Assembly: GCA_964016885.1 (NCBI GenBank)
Contig: OZ024744.1
Span: forward strand, 68,882,001 to 68,946,000
DNA: 64,000 nt
Reading direction: 5' to 3'
Origin: Eledone cirrhosa
Lineage: Eukaryota
The number at the start of each line of letters is the position of its first letter. Position 1 is the first letter of the stretch. This document shows, piece by piece, positions 11,895-64,000 of the stretch. The translations under genes were made by a program, and so were the position numbers. The notes beneath the pieces are model-generated. The model worked only from the letters and a program-made list of their open reading frames with translations. It made no database searches and was not told the DNA's origin.

Positions 11895-12437
11895 ATATTA
11901 TAACATTAAATCATAAATTTTTTAAACACTACAAGTGAAGTCATTCTTTTCCTTTTTTTCAAATATAAAAATAATATATATATAATAATTATATATAATA
12001 TATATCTAATAATTCTAAGGACATGATTTATGATATATATATATAGTCGGGATCATGGTGACAGGTGGATCTCAGAAGCAGGGAGAACTACTTCATTAGT
12101 AATTCAAAACAAACTGTGCGAGAGCGTGAAAAAACAAGTTAAAAAGTTTAGAGCTTAAGTGTATATTTTGATGGTTATTTGGTGGAAAGGATCTTGTTAG
12201 TTACACCCAAAGTTTTCAGTGTATAAGAATGGGTAACGGATAATGTGTTTTTAAATTTTTATTTATTTATCGCTTATCAGTTTTCACTTAAATACTCCGT
12301 TCTCTCGAGAAAATAACATATCGATGTAGAATTACGATCCGGTTTACACACGTGCTAACGTATTTGCATAGTATTGCTATTTTGAGAACAGTTATCTTTT
12401 TACTTAACAGCTTAAACAATGAAACTCCAGTATATTA

Positions 12438-12523
<86 letters not shown>

Positions 12524-12528
<5 letters not shown>

Positions 12529-13352
12529 TACTTGGCGAGGGTCATATTTGTGTAATAATATTGCCAGAATTAATAACAGAACACACTCACTGTTTGGTTG
12601 GTAGCATAGGTGAAATGATAGACCAACACTGGGGGGAACTAAAAGGACGAAAAAATGGTTCAGTACTATACGAACATGCTAGGCAACAACACGACGGTAA
12701 CATAGACAACATAGAAATTAGAATATCTAAACATAGAAATGACCCAGCAGATAGGCAAATCAGAGAGGCCAGCGAAATAGAACTTAGAAGGCCAAGGCTA
12801 AACAGAAAAAATGAATGGAATAACAACAACACCCAAACAAACAACACTGATCTAAGAGAAGTATAAATAAATAAATAAATAAATAAATAAATACATACAC
12901 AACAAGCACAATAACAACAAACACATAAACACACACTAGTAAACTAAGATAGAATACACAGTCACCCAAACACGAACACACATCAAACAAAACACTATAC
13001 ACACACGCAAACGCATGCGCAGTGAAGACAAAAAAATAAACAAATAAATAAATAAATAAACAGACTAAATAAAGATGGCGTAGGCATACAATGCAACGGG
13101 AGGAAACATAATAGCAACACTGACGATTTTGCAGATGTGCAACGAAAGAACTTTGTTAGACTATATATATGTGTTTGTGTCTATATTGTATCTGTATTTT
13201 TGACCGTCGGTCAGTCAATGGCAACATTGAGAACCGAATAAATTAAATTAACCGATATAAAAGACACAGAAGCGAAAACCAACCAAACAGTGAGTGTGTT
13301 CTGTTATTAATTCTGGCAATATTACACAAATATGACCCTCCCCAAGTATAAC
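12524..13352 (+). mobile_element. Truncated Penelope-like element: GIY-YIG C-terminal part, hammerhead motif and inverted 3'-end copy at the 5' end
   Basis: HWGELKGRKNGSVLYEHARQQH...RQIREASEI...LNRKNEW is the PLE EN C-terminus (Nematis-like). 12524-12601 is the reverse complement of 13278-13352. Confidence 0.75.
13116..13157 (+). ncRNA. Minimal type I hammerhead ribozyme (weak stems)
   Basis: aaca-CTGACGA-tt ttgca gatg tgcaa c-GAAA-gaac-TT-tgtt. Confidence 0.55.
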
Positions 13353-13432
13353 AATATTTGTTTCATATCAAAAACCTCGCAAAACTATATATATATCGAA
13401 ACGGCCCGAGCTCACCCGTCGGAGTCCTGAAT

Positions 13433-13473
<41 letters not shown>

Positions 13474-13586
13474 GTTATTCCGGTCCGGGTTGAATCGGAG
13501 GTAACCACAGTAAGTAAGGTACTCAATACAAAGCAGAGTATAAAAGCTTTAATATAGATGAGATTCTACAGGACTAGAACTCAATT

Positions 13587-13633
13587 ATTCCTGATGATTT
13601 CTAAAGAATGAAACAGTTCTAGTCCTGTAGAAT
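13587..13633 (+). ncRNA. Type I hammerhead ribozyme
   Basis: attc-CTGATGA-t ttc taaa gaa t-GAAA-cag ttctagtc ctg-TA-gaat. The cleavage triplet is GUA. Confidence 0.7.
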
Positions 13634-13667
13634 CTCATCTATATTTTATATATATATATATATATTT

Positions 13668-23200: not shown

Positions 23201-23245
23201 TGTATATATATATATACATATATATATAATAAAAAGCTCGTCGGA

Positions 23246-23283
<38 letters not shown>

Positions 23284-23285
<2 letters not shown>

Positions 23286-23412
23286 TCTGACGAGCTTTTC
23301 ATTTCAGAGTGGGGCCAGATCGATACGGATCGAACCTTGAGCTGATCTATAGCGAACGCGTGTCACCAATCAATAAACTTAATGAAGACATAACAACTCG
23401 TCCTATCATTAT
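23284..23412 (+). mobile_element. PLE pseudo-LTR fragment with a degenerate hammerhead (expanded loop II)
   Basis: ggt-CTGACGA-gct...agc-GAA-cgcgtg-TC-acc, one A short of GAAA. Homologous to 58728-58866 and the reverse complement of 53446-53585. Confidence 0.6.
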
Positions 23413-30100: not shown

Positions 30101-31053
30101 TTCGCATCTCTGCCTGCTCCTGATAGTTTCCAACGAAGTATAACTGAAGAAATTGAAGATCCTTTTCTACCAGAGACTGATTAGACCCAATCAAGTGGTA
30201 GATCTGACCATGGACCTTGAAAGTTAGCATGAACCCACGTTCCGAGGCAAGCTTTGCTCCGAAGGATGTTATATGAAACGCAGAATTGTTACGGCGTATA
30301 TTACGCAGAAACTTCGATGATTCCTCCGTCGTGTCTGTCAAAATGAGTTGCAATGTCTCTGGAGAGTCGCGAATAGGAGGTAGTCTAAATTTACTGTTGA
30401 ACAGCACATTCCATCTCTCTCCCCTGGCCATTTTTCGTAGGACAAAACTGCCAAGTAGAGGTCATTTCCCCAATTTTAATACATGCATGGACGGCGTAGT
30501 CTGAAGAGAGGTCGTAGTTAAAGGCCTTCAGCAACCATCGTGAATTGCAAGTCCTAGAAATGCCACGTAACGATGATCGCCGCTGTTCACTTTGCAGAAA
30601 TCGGCCACGTCGTTGCTCTATGGTTTCAGTATTTCGTGCAGCAGCAGTGGCAGTGGCAGTGGCGTCCCTGCTTCTTCGAACGGCGCGTCGTCCTTCATCC
30701 TCTGGAGCGCGAGTTGCGGATGTTGCAGCGGCATCCCTACTTCGTCGAACGGCACGTGATCCTTCATCCTTTCGCGCGTGAGCAGTGGATGTGGCAGCGG
30801 CGTCCTTGCTTCGTCGAACGGCACGTCGTCCTTCATCCTCTCGAACGCGAGCAGCAGCAGTCGCGGCAGCATCTTTGTTCCGTCGAAGTTCACGCCGACT
30901 GTCATCCTCCTCCGCTCTTGCAGCTGTCGTCTGCACAGCATTATGTGAGAGCCTGATCGCAGTCGCATTTACATCTTCGGCGAGACGCCTTCGCTTAGAC
31001 CTACTTGCATCATTAGATAATCGACCAATGAAAGTTCTTTTCTTGGGGAGCAT
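27130..31053 (-). pseudogene. Helitron RepHel pseudo-ORF (multiple frameshifts, helicase C-terminus deleted)
   Basis: Consecutive minus-strand ORFs at 30391-31116, 29424-30431, 28858-29490, 28148-28972, 27784-28020 and 27153-27695. The reading stops after FIPRIPLIP...PFTFRR, just before the 3' hairpin. Confidence 0.9.
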
Positions 31054-31966
31054 TGTTTTTAGAAAATTAATCAGGGAGAACGATAAATAGTGGACAAATA
31101 AAGTTAAAGTAAGCAAATCTAAACACGGATATAAATTGTGAAAAAATATGATAAATCTATGTGGTCTGAGAAAGTGGGTATGTTTTTGAAAGATTTTGTG
31201 TACCAGTCAAACTTCAGGTTTTAAGTTAGGGGCAACGCAGCGTACGGACTACCGGTGATAAAGGAAATTAAATATTGTGGTTACAGTGGTAGGTATGTAA
31301 GTGTCAGTATGTTTGTTCAGTTCGAACATAGCATTAAGTAAGTACTAAACATTGAAAGGATAGAGGAAAAATGGCCGAAAAATCACAGGATGATAAACTG
31401 GAACCTTATGACCATAAACACATTAACTAAACCCCCTTTAAGGTGACAAATGTTGAAGAAGCATGCGTTTCAGAAACATGGGGTAGCTTATGAGAGTATG
31501 TATGTATAAAAACCTACCACTTGTAAAAAGCCAAAAAAGAAGTGTGAACCTAGGTCGGACTTTACTGATATAAATAGGAGTGATTTCGCACAATGAACAA
31601 CACTCGAGTTGTCTGATTGGTTAGATAATACAAATAAGTGTGATGAAATCTACTGAACACAACTCACTGATGTGTGGTTGGCCAGAGGTCGCCATTTCGC
31701 ATTTAATTGAAGTGCAATTAAACGGGTGAGACAACCGGGTGCAAAAACTAATAAATCATTCGCACAATTTAGGCATGAGTGTGAAATAGCACAATCCACA
31801 TACAGTAGGCGTTAAAATTTACACCTGGGTTAAATCGCGCTTTCTTGGTTAGGAGTGTGAAATGACGCCAAAGTTCAAGGGAAAAAATTTGACTCCCCAT
31901 TCCACACTTAATTGTTGTGCAATTACACATGGGGGACAACCGGGTGCAAAATTAAATTCAATCATC

Positions 31967-32224
31967 CTAAAGTTAACTAAATAAACTAAAGTTAAGTCAG
32001 GGGGATTTAAAAATTCGCTACTCCATTTCTAGGACATGAGTAACCCATGCGTCAACTCTCGTTTAAATTGGCTTTTATTTCCAGAAGTTGAAATGCATTT
32101 CAACTCCTGGAAATAAAAGTCAATTTAAACGAAAGTTGACGCATCGGTTATTCATGTCCTACAAATGGAGTAGCGAATTTTTAAACCCCCCTGACTTAAC
32201 TTTAGTTTATTTAGTTAACTTTAG
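31967..32224. repeat. Loopless palindrome, 129 bp arms
   Basis: Centred on aaatg|cattt (32095/32096). The arms are complementary with scattered mismatches. Confidence 0.92.
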
Positions 32225-34280: not shown

Positions 34281-34468
34281 TGGTGACCAGCTCAACACAA
34301 GTATTGGTAGAGCGTCAGACACCATGCTTTGCAGCATTGTTATGGCCCTTTGCGTTCTATGTTCAAATCCCGTCGAGGTTAACTTTGCCTTTCATCCTTA
34401 CCAGTTCGATAAAATAAAGTACCAGTAATGGACTGCGGTAATGGCTTTGTGCCGTAAAATAGAAACAC
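34281..34468 (+). mobile_element. SINE (family of 36234-36424); a partial second copy lies at 34099-34155
   Basis: gttcaaatcccgtcgaggttaactttgcctttcatcctta...gataaaataaagtaccagtaat. Confidence 0.85.
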
Positions 34469-35025: not shown

Positions 35026-35389
35026 ACTAGACATGAAAAATGCGCAAGCTCAAAAGAGCCACAGAATGTTATAATAAACCTCCAAAAGTGTGGGACTAGA
35101 GTTGTTACTCAAAAATATTGTAAACATTATCTATCGTACACGCTGTGGCATCTTTTATAAAAATATCACAATAAATACATCTATGTTTAATGTAATAACA
35201 GCTATAAATAATTACGTAATATTATTAAAGATAGATGTATTTATTGTGATATTTTTATAAAGGATGCCACAGATTGTACGATAGATAATGATTACAATAT
35301 TTTTGAGTAACAACTCTAGTACCACACTTTTGAAGGTTTATTATAACATTCTGTGGCCCTTTTGAGCTTGCGCATTTTTTATGTCTAGT
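35026..35389. repeat. Foldback/MITE-like inverted repeat, ~158 bp arms, ~46 bp spacer, ACTAG...CTAGT ends
   Basis: 35026-35184 is the near reverse complement of 35231-35389. Confidence 0.9.
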
Positions 35390-35569
35390 AATATATATAT
35401 ATATTATAAATATAATATATATATTATAAATAAATATAATAAATATATAATATATATATGTTATAAATGTAATATACATATATATATATAATAAACAAAT
35501 ATAATACATATTTAACATATATATTATAAATATAATATACATATAATATATATATTATAAATAAATATA

Positions 35570-35655
35570 ATTGTTTCTACTTTTGGCACAAGGCCAGCAA
35601 TTATCCCAGTGCATTACTGGTACTTTATTTTATCGACCCCGTAAGGATGAAAGGC
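35570..35655 (-). mobile_element. SINE 3' fragment (family of 36234-36424)
   Basis: Reverse complement of the SINE body and tail. Confidence 0.85.
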
Positions 35656-35714
35656 AACAGAGAGAGAGAAGAATGCCTTTATATAGAAAAGCAATAAGAA
35701 AAATGTATGACATT

Positions 35715-36986
35715 TTATTTGCGCTCTTTGCTACAATGCGTTGCTTCAGTTCCTCTATAATAATATTTAGCTTTTTCCTCCTATTTTTGTACTTTATTTC
35801 CAGTCTATTTTTAGTGTCTATGTTTTGTAGTGTCCCATTCAGTAGGGACTCAAGCTTTCCAATGTCATTTCTCATTTCCCTGATTTGACCATTCAGTCGT
35901 TTCTTCCACCAAGGTTCTGATCTTTCTTGTTTGTTGTTTCCTCTCGCTTTTATGCCAAGTAATTTCTTCCAAGTAATCTTGCTGTTGCTTTGAGGATATT
36001 GTTGCACTGGTGAAGTCTCCTCGCCTCAAGGTATGGGCTGACTTTGTTTACCTTAGCTGTTGTTTCTTTTAATTTTTTCCTGTCTACAACTCTTAGGTTC
36101 ATAGGTTTCCCACTATCATTGTTCATTTCATCTACCACTAAGTTTAGGATATCAACTAAATCTTGTCCTAGCCCGTCAGCCTTCATCTCCTCAATGGCCG
36201 TATCTTTATTCCAGGTATTATTTATTTCAGCATAGGGCGGTGAATTGGCAGTATCGGTAGAGGGTCGGACGCCATGCTTTGACGCATAGAGTTACGCCCC
36301 TTTATGATCTGAGTTCAAATCCCGCCGAGGTTAACTTTGCCTTTCATCCTTACGGGGTCGATAAAATAAAGTACCAGTAATACACTGGATAATTGCTGGC
36401 CTTGTGCCAAAAGTAGAAACAATCATTTATTTCAGCATTCAGATCATTGTCTGTTTCGGATGGTTCCTCCGTTCTCTCAACCTCTTCACCTTCATTTCCC
36501 ACTGGCTCGTTTGACTGGCATACTCCACTCTCCATTTCTAACCTAATCTCTCTGCTCAGTTCCTCCAGTTCCAGCTCGCTTATCCACCCATTAGTTCTTA
36601 TTACCCGAGCCTGCCGGGCCAATTTTCGTTCATCTAATTTAAATAGACCAATCTCGTTCCAGATGTTATGCATCCGTTTCCTATAGCCTTTTTCCTTGGG
36701 GTTACTCTTCAGGTAACATTGCATAACAGTTCTATTCAATTCTTTCGTCCAGTTGGTTCTGGTCCCTTTCCTTCTTCTTCTTCCTCCGACACCAGCAGTA
36801 TTTGGATGACAGCCAGGCCCCTGCTGCTGAGCCAGGGAGCACCTGCTGGGTGAGCGTCTGTCACATGACATTCCAGTCTCCATTTCACCGTTATTCGAAC
36901 TGTTTAGGTTCGACATTGAAACAATCTTATCGAGGATTGGTGAATGTATGGTTACATAACCACCGGTGATTTCATCAACCTCGGTG
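35715..36986 (-). mobile_element. R4/Dong-clade LINE, 5' portion (N-terminal domain), interrupted by a SINE
   Basis: WTKELNRTVMQCY...GYRKRMHNIW...QARVIRTNGWISELELEE and EPWWKKRL...[12 protein letters not shown], the same family as 40307-42990. The 5' end abuts (TAA)n at 36987-37012. Confidence 0.85.
36234..36424 (+). mobile_element. Complete tRNA-derived SINE with 14 bp TSD
   Basis: TSD atttatttcagcat at 36220-36233 and 36425-36438. Degenerate A box, B box gagttcaaatcc, and a Meta/Nin-like central domain (gcctttcatcctt.cggggtcgataaa). Confidence 0.9.
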
Positions 36987-40230: not shown

Positions 40231-42990
40231 TTCCTTGAATCTCAGTCATTGATGTTGGTTAACTGGAAAGTCCGTTGGATTGAATATCAAGCCACTACCT
40301 GCAGCCTCAGATATTCAGGACGTATCGGAGGGTTCTTGCTGTTCCAAGCAAGCATGCCTTTTGAAGCGTTCCAAAAAGCGTGAAGGGGCCGATTTTCTTT
40401 AACCATCCCTGGAAACCTTTGGAGATAGTCCCCAGTGCGCCTATGACAATCGGGATCACTTTGACTTCATGGCAGTTCCAAATCCTTTTCACCTCCCACT
40501 TTAGGTCCTGGTATCGGTTAATTTTCTCCCTCTCCTTCTCTTGCACTCTCGTGTCGAACGGGCAGGCCACATCCACAATCAGGCACGATCTTTTTTCTTT
40601 GTCCACAACCACCAGGTCAGGTCTATTGTGTTCCAGTTTTTTGTCCGTCTGTATCCTAAAATCCCACAGCACCTTCACCTGACTGTTCTCCATCACCGCC
40701 TCTGGCCTATGCTCATACCATTTCTCAGAATGTGGTAGATTGTTTACTTTGCACAGGTGCCAGTGGATCACCCTGCCCATCACATCGTGTCTCCAGCCCT
40801 TATAGTGGGTCTGGGCTAGGTGTTTACACTCGGACACAATGTGAGCCACAGTCTCCTCTCTCTCTCCACAGATCCTGCACAGTGGGCTAGCCTCCTCCTT
40901 GTAGATATGGTGCTTCAACCACTTCGTTTTGAGGGCCTGCTCCTGCGCAGCCATTAGCATTCCTTCTGTAGCCTTTTTGAGGTCTCCTCTTCTCAACCAG
41001 TTCCATGTCTGTGGATCTCTAAATTCAGTTTTCTCAAAGAAGGTACTATGAAGGGATTTTCCCTTAAGGCTGCTCTTCCTCCTTGATGTTATTTCCTCCT
41101 TGGATATCCCCTGGCCTACTGTCCCCTCCTTCAGTACAGCTCTGAGCATTGGCTCCTTACTATAGGTCACGTATTTGTATAGGTTGTTTTTCTCCATCTG
41201 AACACAGTCCTCTATGCTGATAAGACCTCTTCCACCCTCAGATCTCCTTAGGTAGAGTCTATCGACATCACTCCTCTTGTGGAACATGTTGTAGATAGTC
41301 AATAGCTTCCTAGTCTTCCTATCCATTTCTTTTTGTTCAGCAACATTCCATCTCAGAATTCCTGCACTGTACCTAATAATAGACACAGCTCGGGAATTTA
41401 CTGCGCTTATGGCATTTCTGCTGTTCAGATGTGACTTCAATACGCTCCTTACTCTCCGAATGTATTCAGTTCTTAACAATTCCTTCATTTTTTGGTTCTT
41501 TATGCCATCAGCCTCCAGAACGCCCAAATACTTGTATCCTTCCTCAGAGTCAATTTCCTTTATCATCTCACCTGTTGGTATCTGGATCCCGTTACTTCTG
41601 CTCAACCTACCCCTCTTCATCACAATGACTCCACATTTACCAATACCAAACTGCATACATATATCACTGCTGAAAATACGGACAGTGTCAACAAGCACAT
41701 CCAACTCCTTCTCACTTTTCCCGAAGAGCTTAAGATCGTCCATGAAGAGGAGGTGATTGATGGTAAGCTCTCCCCTTCCCAACTTGTATCCTGCTCTCAC
41801 TTTTCGCAGCATAATGGTCAAGGGCATCAGGGCAAGGACAAACAACAGAGCGGACAGGCTATCTCCCTGGAAGATACCTCTCTTGATCTTCACGCTTCCC
41901 AAGGATACTCCAGTTGATGTCAACTCTGTCTCCCAGGACCCCATACTCCTGCCCAGCAACTGTCTGATGTTATCTGCCACCCTGAAGATCTCCAGGCTTT
42001 TGGTGATCCAGGAATGAGGCACCATGTCAAATGCCTTTCTGTAGTCTATCCATCCCATGGCAAGATCAGTGTGTCTCCTCCTGCAATTCCCCATTACCAT
42101 CTTATCAATAAGCAACTGGTCCTTTGTACCACGTGACTTCTTTCGGCATCCTTTCTGTTCGTCCGGTAACAAGTTGTTTGTGTGGAGGTGATGGTAGATT
42201 TCCTCAGACACAATGCTCGTCAACAGTTTCCACATTACGGGCAGACATGTGATAGGTCTATAGTTGGTAACATCATTACCCTTGATTCGGTCTTTCATTA
42301 TCAGAACTGTGGTACCTTTTGTCAACCACTCTGGCACCTCACCCGACACCAAGCAGTCATTGAACATGGCCGTCAGCTTCGGGTGGAGGGATGTTAAATG
42401 TTTAATCCAATACCCCTGCACACCATCTGGGCCTGGTGATTTCCAGTTGGTTAGTTTTTTGGCCTGCCCCTTAAGAGTTTCAACTGTGATACTCAAATCA
42501 GTTTGTTGTTGTGCCTGCTCACCGATCTCCCTCTGTACTGTCTCAATCCACCCTGCCTGGGCATTGTGTCTAACATCCAGCTCCCATATTCCACTCCAGA
42601 ATGTTTTAGTTTGCTCCGCCCCAGGGATCAAGTCGTTGCCTCTTTCTTTCCCCTCAAGCTGTCCAAACAGCATCTTCTGGTTGTTGTCGAACATGCGGTT
42701 CTGTTTATACTGACTGACTCTGTTCTCGTATCGCCTGATTTTTGCACTCTTTGCTACAATGCGTTGCTTCAGTTCCTCTATGATAATATTTAGCTTTTTC
42801 CTCCTAGTTTTGTATTTTATTTCCAGTCTATTTTTAGTGCCTATGTTTTTTAGTGTCCCATTCAGTAGTGACTCAAGCTTTCCTATGTCATTTCTCATTT
42901 CCCCGATTTGCCCACTCAGTCGCTTCTTCCACCACGGCTCTGCTCTTTCTTGTCTGTTGTTTCCTCTCGCTTTTATACCAAGTAGTTTCC
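40231..42990 (-). mobile_element. R4/Dong-clade RLE LINE, 5'-truncated, 3' end in (TAA)n
   Basis: See the CDS below. A short 3'UTR is followed by (TAA)n at 40190-40230. Confidence 0.93.
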
Positions 42991-43027
42991 AATGCTCGTC
43001 AACAGTTTCCACATTACGGACAGACAT
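40307..43027 (-). CDS. R4/Dong RT + CCHC + restriction-like endonuclease (uninterrupted; first ~12 aa are junction artefact)
   Basis: [64 protein letters not shown] and KINRY. Confidence 0.9.
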
Positions 43028-43133
43028 GTGATAGGTCTATAGTTGGTAACATCATTACCCTTGATTCGGTCTTTCATTATCAGAACTGTGGTACCTTTTG
43101 TCAACCACTCTGGCACCTCACCCGACACCAATA

Positions 43134-43205: not shown

Positions 43206-46200
43206 GGCGACCTACGTAGTAAATCGTATCATCGTGAGCTCCGCAAAGGTTTGTTATTTTCAGTTGTTTAAAATTGCCATTTATGGACATTTTTTATTGT
43301 TAACTGTATATAACTGCACATACATTGTTTTCTGAAAAGGACACCCAAAAATATTGGGGCCTTGAGCCCAAAATTTAAACTTTTATAATTATCAAACAAA
43401 AATTTTTCTTTGAAAAATCATGGACGACTCAAAGTCACACCTTCCTCACAAACTAACACCTCACACCGACACCACCATTGTAAATATTACTACGTTTGCC
43501 AACACTATTTCCCGCCATTACCAATGACTGCAGGTGTTAAAGCCGCCACCCCCACCACCACCACAGCGACAACAGAAACAAAAGAAAAAATAAATTAACT
43601 CGTGATATCGAAATGATTTCAACCAAAATGAACTCTTCCTCACCTAACACCACTGACGCCACCACCACCACAACTGAAACTAAAATTAACAATAAAAAAA
43701 ATAACGTTAACAACAACAGCAACAATGAAATTAAGAAAACCACCCTGAGTTTTGCCAGAGTAGCAAAAAAGTGCGAAGCATTCCTGGTAACTCCTGAGGA
43801 ATTAGAAGAAGCCCCCCAAAATGGTAAAGAAAGATGGGTACAGGGTCAGGCTCATCCCCCCCCCCTACACACACAAACCTAATAAAATGGAGCATCGGCG
43901 CCTATGCACGGTGTCTTATCGGACGATTAATATAAAATCGCACCAAGTGGAACGGGCATCCGAGTCCCAAATCCAAAAAGCTTTGGGACATATATGTGTG
44001 GGCAAAAAACCCCACATCAGACGTGGGCAGAAATATGGAACCGTGGACGTGTTCTTTGAAACACCACAGGAGGTCAGAGAACACAGCATGGTCCCATTAA
44101 GAAGTGACGAATTCACACTCGTCCCAAGCTATTGTGGCCAGAGACTCGTGAAGATCAGGGTGACCCACGTTCCACCGGCCATCGAAATCCCCTGGCTAAT
44201 AGCTGCCGTCCTCGCCGGCATCAAAGCCAACACCAAGATAATCGAAATAGCGAAAGAAAATCAGGAGAACTGGTCTGGATCTGGAATGAAGCTCCTGATC
44301 CAAGTGGACCAAAAAAGCATTGAGGAGATCCCAGAGGTAATAGACCTCAGTGACGGCAGCCACCTCACCGTAATCGTCGAGGGCCGAAGGCCTAGGTGTG
44401 TCGTTTGTGGTGAAGGAACCCACTTAAGGGCTTTCTGCCCTCAGGCTAAAAGGTTGAGGCCACCTCTCTTACCCACCCCAGTGACTCAACCATCAATACC
44501 ACCAGCAGCAGAGATGGCAGCAACAACAGAAGCAACTGTAACAGCAACAACCCCAGCAACAGTAGCAAAACCAACACTACCACCACCCAACGCGACAGAA
44601 CTAGCACCAGCGCCTACACCATCCACCACGCCACAACCAAAACCAACGCCTGTGGAGGATTTTCCACTCCCCGGCCTATCACAACTGGAGACAGATTGTG
44701 ACGACGAGGAGTGGGAAACGGTATCAATAAAAAAGAAAAAAGAAACCAAAAAAGAAAAAATTCTCTTCCCTCTCCCTCCAAAAACAAAATACAGAGGGAA
44801 ACAAATAAACTATCAAACAAAAATGTTAGGACAGATATGCCACCATTCACACCAGCTTCACCAACCCAATCACCAGAATCACACCAAAACCATCACCATC
44901 ATTAACCCCAACACCACCATCACCAACACCACAAAAGTCACCAAAAAGCGAAACAGAAACAAACCCACAACAAACGCAAACAAAACCAAACAGCCAAAAC
45001 GATACACACTACACAGCATTAAATTTGAACAACAACCAATTATTACACTACATCAAACACAACACCAGCATCAAAGAAAAAAACTACACAACACCACAAA
45101 AGTTCACTCAACCTGCACACATACAAATCACTCGCATCAAACAGAAAACGTACACGACACTAAAACAAAAATTCACCAAAGTCATCGGAGATTTCCGACA
45201 AGCACTCTCCAGGAGGATTTATAAGGACATCCTTCCGGAGGAGGCCACAAGCAGTGAATAGGATGGAGAAACCATCCTTCCTCTACGAGAAGTAAGGTTA
45301 GTGGTCTTTCCCATCTTTTTCACTCCTTTTCAACATGATCTCACTCAGAATAGGCAGCATAAATGCGCGTGGCTTGGGTTCGTCATGGAAGCAGGGCCAC
45401 CTGCTCAACGACCTCAGGCCTCTAAACATAGATGTAGTGGCCATCAGCGAGATCAGAATCTCCGAAACACGGGCCTTCGCACCGATCTTCGGCGGCTGCG
45501 ATGTGTATGCATCTCCCAGCCGTCCTGGATCGCGGGGGGGGGGGGTTGCTGTGCTTTTTCGGAGAGGTTTGGTTCTCGCCATGCGGGCCATCTTCCTGGA
45601 CCCAGAGGGTTAGTTGGTGGTGCTAGACGTGACCAGCGGAGACGGGCAAGCTTTCAGGCTAGTGGCCGTCCATGCCCCGCCAGGAGCAGGGCGGCCTGAT
45701 TTCTTCCGGCGTCTGGTGACCTTTCTTGGAACGTCCCGCTCTTTAGTGTTAGTGGGCGACTGGAACGGGATCTTAGATGCACTCTGGGACTGTGTGGGAT
45801 TAGCGGATAGGGGAGGAGGGTGCAAGAGCCTCACCAACCTGCTCAGGCGTTTTGAACTGTCTGACAGGTACCGATTGGATTTCCCGAATGTGCCAATGTG
45901 GACTTGGACAAATCGCATAGGGTCATCCAGATCATATCTAGATAGAGTATTTTGTAGGGAAATAGATAGGTCTAGCATAGGCTGTCCACAATTCAAGATA
46001 GTCAGCTACACGGACCACAAATTCGTGATCTGTGTGCTTGACTTAGATAGGCTTCATAGACGAGGACCCGGTTACTGGAAGCTAAACGCGTCCTTACCAG
46101 CGCGCAAGGCCTACAGAGACCGGATTAGCGAACTAGTTAAGCAGGCGTTGACGGGGGCCATCGTCAACAACAAGTGGTGGTTTGCTCTGCAAAGAGCGAT

Positions 46201-49005
46201 TAGAATAGAATCGATTAGGTTTAGTAAGGCTTTAGCAATAGAGAAAAATAGAGCAGAGAGAGAACTAGTTAGAAAATTAGATGAGGCGCTTAGCAAAGGC
46301 ATTGCGACCGACGTACTTGCGGCGAAATTGGCCCTTGACCAATTCTTCAATGCAAAACACGAAGGCTGCGTTGTCAGAGCAAGGGTGCGTGCTCTCAGAC
46401 ATGAGAGGACGAAAGCCGTTCAATGGGCCCGAGTGGCGGAGGCGCGTCGTGGCAACAAAGCCACGATCCGGTCTTTGGTGGACCACGACGGGCGCATGCT
46501 ACTCGATCCCGGGCAAATGTGTGAAGCTTTTCAGCGACACTTTTCTCAGCTGTTCGGGGACAGCGGTGGGCCGGGTCGAGGGATGGACTTTAGTGTCTAC
46601 CTCGACGGACTGCCGCGGCTCTCGGCCACTGAAGCGAAGTGTTGCGAAAAGCCGATAACAGCCGCTGAAGTAAGGGAGGCAATGACTGGCTGCACAAGAG
46701 GTAAATCGCCTGGTTTGGATGGTCTGCCCTATGAACTTTACGTACAGATGCCAGACTTGTTCGGAGGCCTCTTGGCGGACGTCTACTGCAACTGGCAACA
46801 GAACGTGAGAATTCCCAGTTCTGTGAGCCGAGGAGCAGTGGCACTGCTGAGAAAGGATCCGAACAAGGGGGATAACATAGATAATTTCCGGCCCATAACT
46901 CTGCTAAACACAGAGTTCAAGATTTTGGCCAAGGTGCTAGCAAAGAGGTTGGCGCTTGTCGTTGGTGGTCTGGTGGGAGAGGCGCAGAAATGCGCCATTC
47001 CCGACAGATCCATCCACGACAACCTCCACCTCATGCGATACATCGTAGAGAGGGTAGCTAGGGAACCTGGCACGGGTGGGTCCTTGATCAATTTAGATCT
47101 GTCGAAAGCTTTCGATAGGGTCGACCATCGTTACCTAGCGGCAGTCCTGAGGGCGGCTGGCTTTGGGCCCGTCTTCAGAGGCTGGATCGTGGCCATGCAC
47201 AGCGACATCTGCTCTGTGGTGAGAGTGAACGGTCACCTGTCGGAACCGTTCAACATCATGCGCTCGGTCCGCCAAGGATGTCCCCTCTCGTCCCTCTTGT
47301 ACGTATTGACTCTCGAGCCATTACTGCACAAACTGGAGACGTTGAGGGGCGTCCTGCGCGAACTAGGATGCGGAAGATCCGTGTCAGCATATGCGGACGA
47401 TGTCACCGTAGTGGTGTCGAACGCCAAACACATCGAGGCGATCGGCACTACACTAAGAGAATACGAAGCGGTGACAGGAGCAATGATCAACCAGGAAAAG
47501 TCAGTGGGTCTGCAGCTCGGCACCTGGAGAGGCATGTCCATGCTGTCCAACAGCGTCGTCGGACGCTGGACGGACGGACCGGTTAAATTGCTAGGGGTCT
47601 GGTTCGGTCCGGACCTCCAGACGGACAAAAACTGGGACGTGGTGACGAGCAGGGTGGCTTCTCTCATCCAGAAATGGGCGGAGATGAAGCTATCCCTGAA
47701 AGGTCGAGCGGAGGTGGCTAACGCGTACATCGCGTCTGTCATCTGCTACCGCCTGACCGTCGTACCTTGTCCTAAGCCTCGCCTGACTGCGCTGGAGCGT
47801 TTGCTCTTTCGCTTTTTGTGGAAGGGACGCGCTCCGATGGTCAGGCGGTCCATCTGTTGTCAACACCCGCTACGTGGAGGGCTGGGCATGCCGTGGCTGA
47901 TGATGCGCAGGCACGCGCTCAGGCTACGACATCTCCACCTCTTCCTCGACGGTGATCAGGTGTGGTCGCCGTTTGCTAGACACGTATTTCCCCAGCTCGT
48001 TTCTTTGACGGAGCTGCAGTCCTGGGTCAAGCGAAGACCGAGAGGGAGCGCCTGGAGACTGGAATGTCTTCAGGCGCTCACAGCCCTCGACCAATCGGGC
48101 AATGTGATCGGTGGAAACTCCACCTCGGCGTTCTATAGAGGATTAGTGGAGGGGAAGAGCGACGACGTACTTGGGGAAACTCTAGGCGTCGACGAAAATC
48201 AACTAGCCAATCTCTTCGGAAGAACTTTCGGGCCGGGGCCTATGGACAACTTCCAGAAATCTCTGGCCTGGCAGTGCTACCGAGGAGCCTTGCCAGTTCG
48301 GGATAAACTCTACAGGCATGGAGGTACCGTCAGCCGGGCAGGTCCGAGATGCGCACAGGGCGACGAAACCGTCCTGCACGCACTCGTCCAGTGTCCGAAA
48401 ATTGCTGACTTGTGGGTTTATGTCGAACACCTGCTGTCGCGTGTAGGACGGATCCGGCTATCATCTGAGTCCATCGTGAGGATTTCCCCGCACTCCTCCT
48501 TTAGCCGGGAAGGGCAGGCAGTTTTTATTTGTCTGGTGGCCATGGCGAAAGAGATAGTATGGTGGACACGTTTGAAACGGCTGAAGACTAGCACTTACCT
48601 CTTCGGTGATGCTCTGATTGACTTTTTCAAATTTCATTTGAAAAGGAAAATCAGAGTAGAGAGGGAAGTGCTCTCTTCCCAGCATTTTGTTGAAAGATGG
48701 GTGAGAGAAGCAAGAATGGCCCGAGTGAATGGGCCTACTCTGAGTATATATCTGTAAATTAAAGTTGGAAAACTGGGAGAGGGCACTTGCCTTGGTGGTC
48801 AGGGTCACTGTGGCTTTTTACTGGGCTTTCTCCACAAATGTCCCTCCGAAGTCTCCCCCTATTGGGGAATTTTTCATTGTTATTTTTTTGTTACATCCTC
48901 TGTTTTTGTTTTTTACACGCAGAAATGCCCATTTGTACCGTCCTGTATTTCCTGTACTGTCCTTAATGTCTACTTAATGTAAACCCGTGTGGTTAATAAA
49001 GAAAA
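43206..49005 (+). mobile_element. L1/Tx1-clade LINE, full length, young
   Basis: ORF1 (about 43420-45300, frameshifted) has CVVCGEGTHLRAFC. ORF2 runs 45335-48757. The 3'UTR has AATAAA. It is flanked by (TTA)n at both ends. Confidence 0.95.
45335..48757 (+). pseudogene. Tx1 ORF2 (APE-RT-zinc knuckle) with a single in-frame TAG at 45611-45613
   Basis: ORFs 45335-45613 and 45614-48757 are in the same frame. The sister copy has AAG at the equivalent codon (39551). Motifs GDWN, TDHK, NFRPITLLN, DLSKAFD, RQGCPLS and YADD. Confidence 0.92.
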
Positions 49006-49052: not shown

Positions 49053-49163
49053 TATGATTATTATATTATTATATGAGCATTGCATGAACACACATTATAG
49101 CAGTAGCTTGTTGACAATTCATATGAAGCACGTGGTTAGACAAACAAACTTAAAATATAATAT

Positions 49164-49344
49164 AATTGTTTCTACGTTAGGCACAAGGCCAGCAATTACC
49201 CAGTGCATTACTGGTACTTTATGTTATCGACCCCGTAAGGATGAAAGGCAAAGTTAACATTGGCGGGATTTGAACTCAGAAAGGCAAGGGCCGTAACTCT
49301 ATACGTCAAAGCATAGCGTCCGACCCTCTACCAATACTGCCAAT
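49164..49344 (-). mobile_element. SINE (family of 36234-36424)
   Basis: Reverse complement of the nearly full-length SINE. Confidence 0.88.
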
Positions 49345-49869: not shown

Positions 49870-51372
49870 CTCTCCCAACCAGTCAAACTGATAATACGAA
49901 AGCCATTAAATCGTTATTAACCTAGTGTAAGTTTATATGACTATAATCAACTGTATTAAATTTATCATCCTGTTTGAGGAGAAAATGTGGACCCGGAAGA
50001 ACACACCTAATAACTTCGATATTACAATGGGATCTAGTGACTCAGCACAGGTCACTGATTTAGTTGGACCATACCTCCTCCATGAGTTACATACAACTTT
50101 TCCCTAGCTTCGCGGTGGGCTATACCGTGATGACGCCCTACTGACCCTTGAGTATAAAAAACACAACATTGAAAGAACTAGGAAGGACCTACATAAATTC
50201 TTTAAATGCTTCAACCTTTGTATTTTTTAGATGTAACCCTTGACTTAGAAAATAAGACCTTCACACCTTATCATAAACCTAACGAAAATCTGACATATGT
50301 AAATGCTAATCCAACCATCCTAAATCTGTCCTAAATGCCATTATTAAAGGCGTATCAAATAGGATTAGCCGACTGTCACACAGTGAGGACCCATTTAACT
50401 CTAATGTTGAATTTTATAATGAAGCTCTAGCAAGGTCTGGATATAAGAATAAGTTATATTACAAACCTAGTAACTCCCAAACCACGTGTGCAGGACCAAA
50501 TACTATAATTACGCATAAGATGTCTCTTAATAATAACAGTAATAGAGGTAAGACCCATATAGTAAATAATTCTGCCCGGCCACGGCGGAATAAACATACC
50601 GTGAACCCTCCTAATACCCATACTATTAATACTAATAGCGATGTTATAAGATCTAGAAACCAAGGACATAGAGGGGTCAGTGACTTGGGTAGGAACCTAA
50701 ATAACGTAGGGCAGCCACATCTGGTAAATTATGGCAATATTGGGCATTCTATGGGCAACCACTCACTTGGGAGGAAAACTAGAAAAAAATAGAAGAAGAG
50801 TAAACACATACTTTAACCCACCCTATACCTCTGAAATCGTAACCAACATTCCCAGAACCTTCTTCTCTATCTTGGAAAGGAACTTCCCGCCAGGCAGTAG
50901 ATATCATGGTATTATTAATAAAAATACGATTAAACTATCATATTCCACTACCCCTAACTTAGCTTCCCACTTAGCCCGCACTAATAATAGGAAAATTAGG
51001 GTAGGGTTTGAGACCATCAACTTTGTAAATAACCACCAACAACCTAACACATTGGGAAAAGAGTTCCCTGACGATGGTAACGACACACCAGATGTACAAA
51101 TAACATTTCGGGATAGTACAACCAACCAGTTCTCCCGATGCATGTTGAACAGTACAAACCTCAATTGTAATTGTAGACGGTGAGATAGTTGCCCTCTGAA
51201 GGGCAACTGCCTCATGAGGAATATAGTTTATGCATGCGATGTTATAACGGCTACCTCTACCAAAACTTACATTGGCTCAACCTCCACCTCCTTTAAGACA
51301 AGATACAACTCCCATAATTACACATTTAGATGTGATAGGCTCAAGCATACGACCTCTTTGGCCGGGTATGTT
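49870..51372 (+). mobile_element. Penelope-like element (Hydra-type), degenerate RT + GIY-YIG
   Basis: FDITMGSSDSAQVTDLVG, GGLYRDD, FLDVTL, YHKPN, YFNPPY, IKLSYS, CNCRR*DSCPLKGNC and IVY...YIGST. Confidence 0.88.
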
Positions 51373-51393
51373 TCAGACTGTCCCCACAGAACA

Positions 51394-53130: not shown

Positions 53131-53200
53131 TTATATATATATATATAAAAGAAAATTTCGCTCTACATAGCTGAATACAATAAATGTTTTTTCGAATGTT

Positions 53201-53410
53201 TTTTCGAATATTAATAATAACATTCGATTCGTTTGTAATTATATAAACAAGCCTCAATTTTATAGCCATGTTAGTAGAATGAACACTTCATTCTTGCTCT
53301 TGCCAACATAAGAGCAAGAATGAAGTGTTTATTTTACTAACATAGCTATAAAATTGGGGCTTGTTTATATAATTACAAACGAATCGAATGTTATTATTAA
53401 TATTCGAAAA
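53201..53410. repeat. Foldback palindrome, ~100 bp arms, 8 nt loop
   Basis: ttttcgaatattaataataac...cttgctctt-gccaacat-aagagcaag...gttattattaatattcgaaaa. Confidence 0.92.
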
Positions 53411-53445
53411 ACTCAGATTACATTTATTATATATATATATATATA

Positions 53446-58866
<5,421 letters not shown>

Positions 58867-58966
58867 ATAATACACTCTGTGTAGCTCTACACCTCAACAC
58901 AGAAGTGAACCTAAACACCGAGTGCTCACCCGGGTGAACCTGCAGTAACTCCAAGTTACACTCCCT

Positions 58967-59019
<53 letters not shown>

Positions 59020-59065
59020 TTCAAAATATTAACAAATGAAGATATTCACATAATCAAAATATATG

Positions 59066-59129
59066 CTTTACTATATATATTTCGAAGGTACTGTGTTTTT
59101 TTTTACCAGTACGTCCTCGTCAGATAAAA
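59066..59129 (-). ncRNA. Type I hammerhead ribozyme
   Basis: Minus strand: ttttat-CTGACGA-ggacgtactg [13 nt] cagtaccttc-GAAA-tatata-TA-gtaaag. Confidence 0.72.
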
Positions 59130-59318
59130 TATCTGATTTGATATATGACATATCATGATATTTCAAATCCAGTATTGGCAGTGTTATATATATATATATA
59201 TATATACGATATCGTAAATATACGTATCGTAAATATTCTCTAAATACTTGTTGAGTGCTTTTATATCAGTTATAAATATTTACTCGTTGTTAACCCAACA
59301 ATTTAAATAAAACTTTGC

Positions 59319-59362
<44 letters not shown>

Positions 59363-59573
59363 AATAAACAACATAAGATCATTATTTCATTTACCAGTCG
59401 TTTACCTGACGACTGAAAGCAAATAAATCTGCTTTCAGTCGTCAGAATGAAAAAATGCAGGTGTTTTTTTTTTAGTGTGGATTTGAAAAACAAAAATATT
59501 AGAAATATGACAGTGAGGTTAAAGGAAGAAGAAAAAAAGATAATAAATATAAAAGTATATAAACACACACACA

Positions 59574-59655
<82 letters not shown>

Positions 59656-59730
59656 TATATATATGTATATATATGTATATATATTTATAAATATATATAT
59701 ATATACATACACATAAATACACAAATACAC

Positions 59731-59786
<56 letters not shown>

Positions 59787-59821
59787 AATTAAGATTCTCT
59801 AGAAAGGCCGGAGGATAGGTA

Positions 59822-59866
59822 AATATTGCTGATGAGATGTAACAACATCGAAACTAGTCCAATATT
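59822..59866 (+). ncRNA. Type I hammerhead ribozyme, canonical core
   Basis: aatattg-CTGATGA-gatgt aaca acatc-GAAA-ctag-TC-caatatt. The triplet is GUC, with cleavage predicted after 59859. Stem I extends with bulges over 59794-59888. Confidence 0.88.
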
Positions 59867-60153
59867 CCTGTCTGGCTTTCTGGAGAATAGAGGAAAGGTG
59901 TTTCCTCGAAAACCAGTATGACTCTAAAAACCGGTTTGTCTGTGTGTTTACATACAGAATAGCTGAACACTCACAGTAAAGTGTCCAGTGAAAAACTCGG
60001 TACATCTACATATGTACACGTGTGTGTATTCATATGCATACTAGTATTTCAGTATACATATGTGGATGTACATTTTTAACTTAATTGTTTAAGCGTCAGT
60101 CATACAACAGTGAGTTACAAACGAAACGAAATTTAATTTCGTTTCGTTATTTG

Positions 60154-60198
<45 letters not shown>

Positions 60199-60238
60199 GA
60201 TATTAAACAAATGGAAACTATATTTATAAAACCATATT

Positions 60239-60304
60239 TATTTCATTATACATATTTCGGGGATACCATATTAAAAATATGGCATGCCTTCTTCAGATAA
60301 AATA
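60239..60304 (-). ncRNA. Type I hammerhead ribozyme (inverted copy of 61280-61345)
   Basis: Minus strand: tattttat-CTGAAGA-aggcatgccatatt ttt aatatggtatcccc-GAAA-tatgta-TA-atgaaata. Confidence 0.75.
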
Positions 60305-61279
60305 CAATATATAAACATTTTATAAATAATTTTGACGTACCATAAATATAACACAAAGAAAAAAATTTTTTTCTGTGAAACAAGAAATTACAGAGTTGAT
60401 CACATAAAATCATGGGTATGTCTATAGTGTCAACTAGAACTTGAGATGACCTTCTCTTTTTCTCTTTCTTTCCTTTTCCGGAAAATGCATATGCATGTGT
60501 ATATATATTTCCGTATTTTTTGAAGTTTTATCTCATTTTTGGTACATCGACCTCAGAATTTTTAAACTAAACATATGGTCATTGTTGAGCAAAATTATTT
60601 TCACACATTATATATCTATGTCTCATTCATGAATATTGATATTTACATTATATTACCCAATTCATATGAATTGATAATTCAAATTGATAGGACATAACGT
60701 AAAGATGTAAATCTATCATCCCTCTCTCTAGATATAGCTCTTTCTTCTCCTCCCTCTTTATATATGATGAAATCTATGTATCGGTTGTTTTAACTTTGCC
60801 TCTCGAGTTTCTCTCTTGTTTCTCTCTCATTTCTCTCCTATTTCTCTCACCTCCCCATATATAATTATTATTATTTGGGCTACCTCTATTCTCCCCCCCC
60901 CCACTTCTATCTTTCTCTCTCTCTGTTTTCTCTTCATTTCTTATTTTCTCTCCGCCCCCTCCCCAACTGTCCTTAACACTATAACTAAATAATTACAGTA
61001 CACCCTCCCTCCTAAATCTCTCAATTTGTATGATGAACTATTATTATTCATCTGTTGCCTCAGCTGCTTCTCTTTTTTCACCCTATTTCTCTCTCCCCTA
61101 TCTCTCTCTATTTCTCTCTATTTTTCTTTACATACATTTCTTCTTTTTCTCTGTCTTTCTTTTTAACTGTGCTTAACACTAAATATTTGTAAACATCTCA
61201 CTACCAAACCAGCTTTTTACATAACGGTTGGTCAATATTTATGGTACGTCAAAATTATTTATAAAATGTTTATATATTG

Positions 61280-61345
61280 TATTTTATCTGAAGAAGGCAT
61301 GCCATATTTTTAATATGGCATCCCCGAAATATGTATAATGAAATA
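61280..61345 (+). ncRNA. Type I hammerhead ribozyme
   Basis: tattttat-CTGAAGA-aggcatgccatatt ttt aatatggcatcccc-GAAA-tatgta-TA-atgaaata. Stem I is 8 bp and the triplet is AUA. Confidence 0.75.
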
Positions 61346-61534
61346 AATATGGTTTTATAAATATAGTTTCCATTTGTTTAATATCGTATATCTACTCCAA
61401 AACTTGTCGAGTGCTTTATATCAGTTATAAAATATTTACTTGTTGTAACCCAACAATTTTATATAAAACTTTTGCATATATATATATATATATACATATA
61501 TACACACATACATATATATATATACATATACATA

Positions 61535-61860
61535 TATATACATAATTATAAAAATAAATAAATAAAGATAAATAAACGAATATAATGCATATACTAAAGT
61601 AAGCAGTCAAATGACCTTACACGGACAAAATACATATATATGAAATCAAAATAATAAATAAATAAAAGTAAAATATAAAGTCAAATATAAAAAAAATTTT
61701 ATAATTTTTATATTTGACTTTATATTTTACGTTTATATGTTTATTATTTTGATTTCATATATATGTATTTTGTCTGTAAGGTCATATGACTGCTTACTTT
61801 AGTATAGGCATTATATTCGTTTATTTATCTTTATTTATTTATTTTTATAATTATGTATAT
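61535..61860. repeat. AT-rich palindrome, ~160 bp arms
   Basis: catatactaaagtaagcagtca.atgaccttaca... pairs with ...tgtaaggtcatatgactgcttactttagtata. The centre is near 61697. Confidence 0.9.
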
Positions 61861-61916
61861 AATATGTATATACATATATATATATATATCTATATGTGTA
61901 TATATGTATATCTATA

Positions 61917-61993
<77 letters not shown>

Positions 61994-62173
61994 GTGTTTT
62001 TGTGTATTTATGTGTATGTATATATATATATATATGTGTGTGTATATATATGTGTGTGTGTGTTTATATACTTTTCTATTTATTATCTTTTTCTACTTCT
62101 TCCTTCAGCCTCACTGTCATATTTCTAATATTTTTGATTTTCAAATCCACATCCAATAAAAACACCAGGATTT

Positions 62174-62233
62174 TTTCATTCTGACGAACGAAAGCAGATT
62201 TATTTGCTTTCAAGAAACCAGTGGTAAATGAAA
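62174..62233 (+). ncRNA. Type I hammerhead ribozyme
   Basis: tttcatt-CTGACGA-ac gaaagcaga ttta tttgctttc aa-GAAA-ccagtgg-TA-aatgaaa. The base of stem II is mismatched. Confidence 0.65.
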
Positions 62234-62323
62234 TAATCATCTTATGTTGTTTATTACATAAATAAGCTCTGTAACCTACAAAGAGCACTCTTTTTTCCTG
62301 GACCTTTCCGACGGAATTACTTC

Positions 62324-62508
<185 letters not shown>

Positions 62509-62604
62509 TTGTAAGGTTTTTGATATGAAATCGTGTGTTACAATCAATATTGTTATATTTTGGAAGGGTCAATTTGTTATAATATATTTCTGGCAATATT
62601 ATAA

Positions 62605-64000
62605 CATGACCCTCTCCAAGTGCCCCAATAATCACAGGCATAAATCTGAAGGTGTAATCAGGGTGGAGTATCTGCAGATTTCTCATTAGTTCTGCATAAA
62701 TATTCTCCTTTTCGCTAATCTTTGATATTATATTGGCATCTGCTGGGCAGCTAACTTCCACTACTATGCATGCCTTCTTTTCCCTGTCCCATATCATAAT
62801 ATCTGGTCTCTTATGTCTGCATTTTATTGGGGTTTTTACTGGAACATTCCACCAGTACTCTTTCCTATTATGTATATGGATGTCTTCCACATTGCTGTAG
62901 CTTTTAATGTGTTTATTATCGGGGCTATCTTTTCTACGGATTGCATTGTACAGTGTTTGGGCCACTACATCATGCCTCATAGGTAGATAGTACCGTGATG
63001 ACATCCTTGAACAGCTACTTATGACATGGGTGACATCTTCGATGTTAATTCTGCAGAGTCTGCACTTGTTATCACATCTAGGTGTTTAGCCTGCATCCCT
63101 ATCTCTTTTGTGAATACGTTATTTCGTGTTGATTTCCCGTTCTTGGATTGCAAAAGCGTATCCTTCAAAGGTTGTTGTTCTAAGATAGACTACTTTCCTT
63201 ATCTATATTACTCTCAGTCTGGGGCTTTCTGGCAACATATCGATGCATGAATTTTTGCTGATAAGCATGTAGTTTTCATCCGCGGTACTGCTGGGCAACT
63301 TCCCAGGTCAAGATTTTTCTTCATCCAATCCATGTTCAATGCATAGAGTCTCACATTATCCACAAAGAAATTACGGGTTAAGTTCGTATTTCTGTCCTCC
63401 TGTGAGCCAATGATGTATCCTTCACATTTCTTGAGCAGAAAGGACAAGGGGTTTAATGACAGGATGAATAATATCACAGAGAGACTGGCTCCCTGAAATA
63501 TACCCCTGCGATATTATATTTTATCAGTGAAAATAGAGTCCTCCCTCTCTGTCTTTAACCCTAGGATTGTAGCTCAAGAAGAAGACAGCTTCTCTATGGC
63601 TCTGATAATAATGTCTGGGACTTTAGCAAGTCTGAGGGCCTTTATCATCCAAGAGTGGAGGACAGAATCAAATGCTTTCTTGTAGTCCAGCCAGACTGTA
63701 GCCATAGTCCTCCTAAGTTATCGCACCTCTGACATCGCAGTTTTGTTGATTAGGAGTTGTTCAGCACATCCCAAACCCCTTTCTTTCCAGCTGCTTGTTC
63801 ATCTGTGATGATGTTATTATTTTCACAGTGATCTTGGAGGAATAGGTTCAGGCAGGCTGTATACATCTTATACATCAGGTTCTGGCATCCAATGGCTCGG
63901 TGGTTTTATGCCAAGTGGGTGTCTTTGTTCTTGGGGACCAGTAATGTTTGTGCTAATGTCAACCATTCTGGTATACGTGTGTGTATCTCCCTTAAGAACC
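62605..64000 (-). mobile_element. Second R4-like RLE LINE family, degenerate, running off the window
   Basis: WLDYKKAFDSV, RGIFQG.SLS, FFVDN, RHDVVA, RPDIMIWD..VEVSCP and MPVIIGALG. Confidence 0.85.

Follow-up and report, generated by a model that had tools for sequence, protein, structure and literature searches.

A nest of hammerhead-bearing retroelement ends in (TA)n tracts of Eledone cirrhosa, probably dominated by truncated Hydra-type Penelope-like elements

We analyzed a 64,000-nt stretch of the Eledone cirrhosa genome (assembly GCA_964016885.1, contig OZ024744.1, positions 68,882,001 to 68,946,000 of the forward strand), referred to here as the window, in which the interval 59000–62260 carries a dense nest of hammerhead ribozyme motifs and inverted repeats; all coordinates are positions in the window. 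The window is animal DNA dense in retroelement remnants and microsatellites. Our analyses confirmed the nest and revealed that three of its four hammerhead families, denoted A, B/E and C/F, are best explained as 5′-truncated 3′ ends of Penelope-like elements (PLEs) of the Hydra clade. The stretch would then be mostly an inert pile-up of insertions, a reading to which we give a probability of roughly three in four. For the fourth family, module D, the evidence leans towards a retrozyme-like unit.

A descriptor search identified five complete type I hammerheads within 59000–62260, each with a CUGANGA...GAAA...NUH core and helices I, II and III, whereas 1000 block dinucleotide shuffles averaged 0.003, with one motif in three of them and never more. 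Two are on the minus strand, A (59129–59066, AUA site, predicted cut after 59072) and B (60304–60239, predicted cut at 60247). The plus strand carries D (59822–59866, GUC, predicted cut after 59859), E (61280–61345, AUA, predicted cut after 61337) and F (62174–62233, GUA, predicted cut after 62226). A sixth motif, C (minus strand, at 59445), retains CUGACGA, but in place of GAAA it has the core's reverse complement; its core was destroyed because stem II has been extended into a palindrome, leaving a single long hairpin. Since B/E and C/F are mirror copies, the six motifs amount to four insertions. The base of helix II (10.1–11.1) is paired in A and D alone (G–C), and is mismatched as A·C in B and E and as A·A in F, which has two mismatches there. 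At the Rfam gathering threshold, no hit was obtained in the whole window. At a relaxed threshold, D alone matched a hammerhead model (HH9, 34.2 bits, E 5.2e-6, gathering 52), and the microRNA and snoRNA matches that also appeared were rejected as far under gathering and mostly on microsatellites. A second descriptor, whose loop rule missed A, B and E, was used just to locate additional motifs in the window.

The modules are arranged as follows. Module A (59018–59185, minus strand) is a solo PLE-type 3′ end that abuts a (TA)n tract (58969–59017) at its end point; it is distantly related to B/E, and its local minimum free energy (MFE) favours an alternative fold by 9.1 kcal/mol. Next to it lies G1 (59208–59316, plus strand), which starts with a tiny head-to-head palindrome, retains only a few bases of terminus and which we infer from its sequence to be a B/E-family tail, a nearly bare second copy of the tail of E. 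Module C (59363–59562, minus strand) is a tailless inverted copy of module F (62064–62258, plus strand), and F is followed by a 69-nt tail (62259–62327) and then by (CA)n(TA)n. These two form the outer inverted pair (59366–59562/62252–62064; 87% identity, 8.1% substitutions), with the (CA)n/(TA)n tract at 59563–59783, which mirrors 61862–62063, as its inner part. Module D (59784–60157, plus strand) and a (TA)20 tract (60158–60197) precede module B (60198–60349, minus strand), an inverted, tailless 152-nt copy of the terminus of E. An 885-nt spacer (60350–61234, plus strand) leads to module E (61235–61386, plus strand) and its tail G2 of about 90 nt (61387–61475). The inner inverted pair B/E (60198–60349/61386–61235) is identical at 151 of 152 positions, an arm divergence of 0.7%. 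A direct repeat links 59225–59315 to 61382–61471 (87% identity), and P (61535–61860), a 326-nt AT-rich palindrome between TA tracts, has arms that differ by 3.3% and contains no intact hammerhead; to a decayed hammerhead it shows weak local similarity.

The nest has eight stop-to-stop frames of at least 80 aa, seven of them microsatellite read-throughs and the other a 93-aa frame. Neither a profile of the PLE endonuclease nor a tblastn search with 150 homologues gave a significant match in it, and the profile lent no support to a candidate endonuclease C-terminus where the spacer begins. The first-pass annotation, which had described a nest without open reading frames (ORFs) holding six hammerheads (one disrupted), two inverted pairs, a palindrome and a direct repeat of about 90 bp, was accurate: all of these lie where it had placed them, with the same predicted cuts, and no credible ORF was found.

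The architecture of A, B/E and C/F is that of Hydra-clade PLE termini. The predicted cut is 55 nt from the end in A, 49 nt in B/E (139 nt with the tail) and 32 nt in C/F (101 nt with the tail), and the supplement of Craig et al. 2021 (PMC8557442) places it 29–152 nt from the end in 23 of 24 Hydra families with a 3′ hammerhead. Helix III is a 3–4 bp palindrome with a 1–3 nt loop in all three families, which is also the published Hydra form, where the cut mostly follows A or U (PMC8557442). By our count from the same supplement, the helix II base is unpaired in 15 of 26 Hydra hammerhead rows, as it is in B/E and F here. The target of published Hydra elements is (TA)n (PMC8557442); in the nest, A and B end in (TA)n, C and the tail of F in (CA)n(TA)n, and the G tails in (TA)n. 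Apart from the solo A, each family consists of a head-to-head inverted copy and a one-sided tail, the tails being borne by the direct copies E and F. An inverted pseudo-long terminal repeat (pLTR), junction palindromes and an optional tail belong to the described PLE anatomy (PMC3846280; PMC8557442), and opposite-strand hammerhead pairs 100–700 bp apart were ascribed to truncated PLEs in 2014 (PMC4209133).

The window also contains coding remnants of this type. The remnant frame 22205–22744 (minus strand) has 3190 relatives at E ≤ 0.001, and a profile made from the best 150 matches four places in the window at 112–169 bits: 8705–9115 (plus), 22774–22208 (minus), 50842–51381 (plus) and 56700–55988 (minus). 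The remnants and their full-length homologues carry reverse transcriptase (RT) motifs together with RWK, DKT/S, a CxCX5C linker, CxxC and CxH around conserved E and N residues; RWK, DKT, CxCX5C, CxxC and CxH are Hydra-clade marks according to Craig et al. (PMC8557442). A sense-strand hammerhead follows three of the four remnants (10643 on the plus strand, with one core change; 21374 on the minus strand; 51394 on the plus strand). Behind the fourth lies a decayed hammerhead, and in its sister at 23285 the first half of the core is intact. In two remnants the gap between stop codon and hammerhead is 831 and 1384 nt, which brackets the 930 non-coding nt before the hammerhead of E. A broken Hydra-type PLE with RT, thumb and GIY-YIG-type endonuclease regions (55943–58010, minus strand; profile 133 bits, tblastn 3e-68 to a 759-aa homologue) adjoins the nest on its left. 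Beside it lie a second, inverted version of its 3′ end, bearing a decayed hammerhead with a long stem II (58041–58865, plus strand, mirroring 55317–55072 and 53945–53446), and a one-sided tail (about 58866–58968, plus strand), the same arrangement of inverted end and single tail as in the nest. Pfam assigned RT or GIY-YIG neither to any of 12 frames of the window nor to any of 10 homologues, and a word-index protein search and a PDB search returned no matches. In Atlas, one homologue lies near clusters with HTH_animal, GIY-YIG and RVT_1 at partial shares, which is a lead only.

Further PLE-like ends were noted in the window. The minus-strand hammerhead at 21374–21254, separated by 42 nt from the (TA)n terminus of a Hydra-type remnant, is otherwise canonical (GUC, intact core) and has a stem II loop of about 70 nt. 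At 23232–23410, a PLE end with a long stem II insert, sister to the decayed ends 53446–53574 and 58737–58865, starts 3 nt before the hammerhead core and has a 16-nt mirror copy across a (TA)n tract, which suggests fold-back on self-complementary (TA)n. A PLE-like stump at 12525–13400 has an inverted 5′ copy, a hammerhead-like motif near 13118 and a tail, and by eye an end just right of the nest (62504–62640) appears related to it. Between TA tracts at 13557–13639 lies an 83-nt palindrome with a small hammerhead core in its loop. The hexamer CTCTGT occurs at 62267, 58875 and 10740, at a similar place in the F tail and after the ends of two coding Hydra-type remnants; it has no counterpart in the E tail, and its chance of about 0.005 per 15-nt window applies to a motif chosen post hoc.

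Depth and joint data were taken from four of 12 matching runs (X1, X4, X6 and X15) and cover 59784–61234 only. Peak depth on the B arm exceeds the spacer median 695-fold in X1, 554-fold in X4 and 430-fold in X15. In other copies the spacer runs on into the arm (joint 60349–61234, 267 reads with 11 starts in X15), the last 60 nt are common to sister families with different stem II sequences, and the strand switch occurs at several positions of the arm (60227–60349). The fall in depth together with the varied switch points indicates 5′ truncation with inversion. The spacer, which is non-coding, pyrimidine-rich, low-copy and variable among copies, is read as the truncated 3′ untranslated region (UTR) of the B/E element. 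At the helix II base, family reads show A–U at 71–100% of family depth in three runs. None of the listed matching runs is an RNA run, and they are therefore uninformative on expression. In metagenomes, the B/E pattern gave two loci, rejected as chance 19-nt matches inside bacterial genes (cysQ-like by ORF reading).

The crowding of hammerheads appears to need no further cause than the targets. Eight of the 31 merged (TA)n tracts in the window lie in 58960–62510, with 1.7 expected, and the four hammerhead insertions in the stretch (11 in the window by hand count) are enriched per base (P = 0.003) and not per tract (P = 0.32). The clustering thus follows from the concentration of (TA)n tracts here, which suffices alone. 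The hotspot of mutually inserted, non-autonomous ribozyme elements proposed at first holds as a description of hammerhead-bearing retroelement pieces nested in (TA)n, and is not supported in making them non-autonomous as a class. We envisage that four retroelements inserted independently into (TA)n/(CA)n targets that renew themselves. A PLE RNA with a small hammerhead near its 3′ end, as present in these sequences, would be reverse transcribed from a nick in (TA)n, and synthesis would usually halt early, in line with the depth gradient of B/E. The copy would often fold back and acquire a mirror end, giving the head-to-head arms and one-sided tails that are found. The oldest insertion would be the C/F palindrome, centred on a microsatellite. 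D, the unit formed by B, spacer, E and tail, and P would have landed later in its central (TA)n and pushed its arms 2.5 kb apart, an order that fits the arm divergences (inner 0.7%, P 3.3%, outer 8.1%). A and G1 may be stumps of families related to B/E, and D would most likely be a retrozyme-type non-autonomous element that borrows the (TA)n-targeting machinery. P is not special, because long palindromes also occur at 31967–32224, 35027–35388 and 53200–53411. These three have 90–95% arm identity, two of them stand beside TA-rich tracts, and no hammerhead was detected in any; we read them as fold-back or MITE-like (miniature inverted-repeat transposable element-like) families.

Several points weigh against the assignment of A, B/E and C/F to Hydra-clade PLEs, or narrow its basis. 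The endonuclease profile over the nest linked no coding sequence to any of the three, their ends could not be aligned significantly with those of the window's coding remnants, and published Hydra elements are shorter than about 3 kb with short 3′ ends, as opposed to the long 3′ UTRs here. The depth data leave A, C/F, P and the tails uncovered, and contig depths, when summed, do not give a copy number. In X15, a restriction-site-associated DNA (RAD) library, read starts pile up inside stem II of B (60283/60286), X1 may share its source with the window, and X6 has zero depth on the B arm. Spacer depth is non-monotonic, with a separate small repeat peaking at 60568–60665. Gene conversion may reset arm divergence, and P, which may be a decayed PLE fold-back or MITE-like, stays unclassified. 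As a side observation, the small separate repeat at 60568–60665 has loose ends elsewhere that begin like the terminus of the 35027 palindrome. The first-pass annotation had named, as part of the outcome that would undo its proposal, that each module be only the terminus of a coding PLE. For A, B/E and C/F, all the structural features tested agree with this, although no link to a coding parent was found; D is different.

Module D has a canonical hammerhead, with a G–C closing pair, a 6-nt loop II, a GUC site and a 2-bp helix III with a UA loop. Its helix I is extended by about 20 pairs with bulges, and the hammerhead is nearly the local MFE structure. The unit of 374 nt has 35% GC, no ORF and a highly self-paired fold (folding z −10.0, or −9.0 with another shuffle); non-LTR retrozymes are defined as 150–450 nt long, below 45% GC, highly self-paired and devoid of ORFs. 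Depth along D is flat (3.0–3.7-fold variation along the unit in three runs) at 7–113 times the spacer median. Positions 59793–60117 recur with six differences in one X6 contig, which bears another organism label, other copies reach at least 19 nt further left, and many copies have GUU at the cut site (14–66% of depth). The core pattern of D had no matches in metagenome, viral and prokaryote collections. These features make a retrozyme-like nature the favoured one for D. We hold only tentatively, at well under even odds, the fuller proposal that D is an undescribed retrozyme family, present under at least three related species labels, whose self-cleaving circle of 330–400 nt would arise from tandem loci and whose permuted monomers would be put into (TA)n by the enzyme of a Hydra-clade PLE.

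A rather unlikely alternative for D is a solo pLTR of another PLE clade, or a MITE-like fold-back with a chance hammerhead. Such an origin would agree with the monomer found at this locus, with the ends of D being complementary over about 11 nt, and with the last ~75 nt (from 60083) being found in other contexts as well. The hammerhead of D lies 298 nt from the right end of the unit, and one published Hydra family cuts 354 nt from its end (PMC8557442). No head-to-tail joint was seen among 15 of 31 joints, but the right end (60118–60205) was skipped as a repeat, so that tandem joints there are not visible. The minus strand of D folds almost as unusually as the plus strand (z −7.5 vs −9.0), which also speaks against a retrozyme. 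Against the alternative, depth is flat, D has neither an inverted copy nor a tail, its helix III (2 bp, UA loop, GUC) differs from the Hydra type, and its size, GC content and self-pairing agree with described retrozymes (PMC7229834).

It is improbable that all four families, D included, are non-autonomous ribozyme retroelements without a coding parent, B, spacer and E being a short non-coding unit that a PLE mobilises in trans. The nest does lack ORFs, the spacer is non-coding and exists in several variants, PLE ends can reportedly pick up unrelated DNA and carry it along in trans (PMC3846280), and retrozymes have been proposed to derive from pLTRs (bioRxiv 10.64898/2026.07.22.740005). However, the 430–695-fold fall in depth from terminus to spacer fits random 5′ truncation better than a fixed unit, the strand-switch joints at several arm positions also favour random truncation, and non-coding gaps just as long precede the hammerheads of the window's coding remnants.

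The first-pass annotation had further predicted that read-through RNA would be cut into defined fragments able to circularise or to serve as PLE templates. When the plus-strand transcript is folded, the B arm pairs with 65 of the 66 nt of E in a 152-bp duplex (−222 kcal/mol, vs −44 kcal/mol for the separate folds) and the C arm with 49 of the 60 nt of F; in the minus-strand transcript all 66 nt of B pair with E. Motifs whose helix III is short and palindromic, as here, reportedly require dimerisation and cleave poorly (PMC4209133). In the sole PLE tested, cleavage needed protein and insertion did not need cleavage (PMC11167929). If the plus strand is transcribed, the most likely outcome is predicted to be one cut, at D (after 59859), and no circle, because circularisation takes two ribozymes of the same kind. 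The fragments, of 1478 and 889 nt, would not be unit-length repeats, because the motifs on one strand all belong to different families. Neither prediction is supported: E and F would be trapped in duplexes, have mismatched helix II bases and lack a same-family partner, and no two same-strand motifs of one family exist to close a circle. A working multi-ribozyme cassette, cut at 59859, 61337 and 62226, is thus hardly credible, for although all three plus-strand cores are intact, helix I costs just 0.6–1.6 kcal/mol locally, a first cut at D would part the C arm from F and PLE protein can aid hammerhead folding (PMC11167929), E is almost wholly paired with B and lacks the A–U pair of most of its family, F has two helix II mismatches, helix III dimers between D, E and F are impossible as these are of different families, minimal motifs cleaved poorly even as dimers (PMC4209133), and eight of nine tested frog dimers remained uncleaved (bioRxiv 10.64898/2026.07.22.740005).

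The remainder of the window holds other repeats. A SINE-like (short interspersed element-like) repeat of about 170–190 nt is present in five copies that are 80–95% alike (11731–11901, 34300–34467, 35560–35657, 36244–36430 and 49154–49344). Two long non-LTR reverse transcriptase frames lie at 40307–43036 (minus strand, 909 aa; 1662 relatives at E ≤ 1e-50, best 66% identity) and 45614–48757 (plus strand, 1047 aa). The fragmented frames at 27153–31206 (minus strand), with a 69-nt tandem repeat at the N-terminal end, are presumably a Helitron-like Rep/helicase, to judge from their translation. No tRNA genes were found in the window.

With most of the nest read as truncated Hydra-type PLE ends, our analysis shows how (TA)n-targeting PLE ends can stack into hammerhead-dense, inverted-repeat-rich debris that looks designed, which is a caution for ribozyme scans of microsatellite-rich animal genomes. 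The gain in knowledge is modest: several Hydra-type ends with long 3′ UTRs, and a unit, D, that may extend retrozymes to this lineage. If D does share its target and enzyme with Hydra PLEs, this would bear on the open question of how animal retrozymes are mobilised; it would tie a retrozyme to a specific partner clade by a shared target, with the pair residing within one genome.

Among known systems, the closest to A, B/E and C/F are the Hydra-clade PLEs, which include Hydra-1_Obim from Octopus bimaculoides (PMC8557442). The insertion into (TA)n, the sense type I hammerhead near the 3′ end, the palindromic helix III and the inverted 5′-truncated copy are shared, and helix III of F has the same four-pair form as that of Hydra-1_oBim. 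The sequences of the three families differ from the listed Hydra hammerheads in a by-eye comparison, and, unlike the published elements, they have no attached ORF, much longer 3′ UTRs and tails of 69–90 nt instead of the usual 30–40 nt (PMC8557442). The minimal, PLE-linked hammerheads of metazoans (PMC4209133) resemble them in being family-variable and in occurring singly or as opposite-strand pairs from truncated PLEs, whereas the present nest packs four insertions into 3.3 kb and its motifs retain a short palindromic helix III. Described PLE insertions (PMC3846280; PMC11167929) share the head-to-head arms, the tail on one end and the AT-rich targets; in our case the arms are split by later insertions, and target-site duplications are unreadable because they would fall inside microsatellites.

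D is comparable to two known systems. It aligns along the full length of the Rfam model Hammerhead_HH9 (RF02275), including the helix I bulge and the 6-nt loop II, with 34.2 bits, under the gathering value of 52. HH9 itself is an intronic motif that is conserved and single-copy, whereas D belongs to a repeat. With the metazoan non-LTR retrozymes (PMC7229834) it shares a canonical type I hammerhead, low GC content, self-pairing and many copies, and its 374 nt fall within the 350–390 nt of mussel retrozyme repeats. In contrast to these, D is a monomer here and lies between (TA)n tracts; retrozyme monomers are common in some families (bioRxiv 10.64898/2026.07.22.740005). In the literature on cephalopod retrozymes and octopus hammerhead ribozymes, a D-like family was not found, with the proviso that the supplement of PMC7229834 may list one; the main text of PMC13282606 mentions neither ribozymes nor hammerheads. 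Taken together, the nest is mostly known PLE biology, to which D adds a possible new retrozyme-type member.

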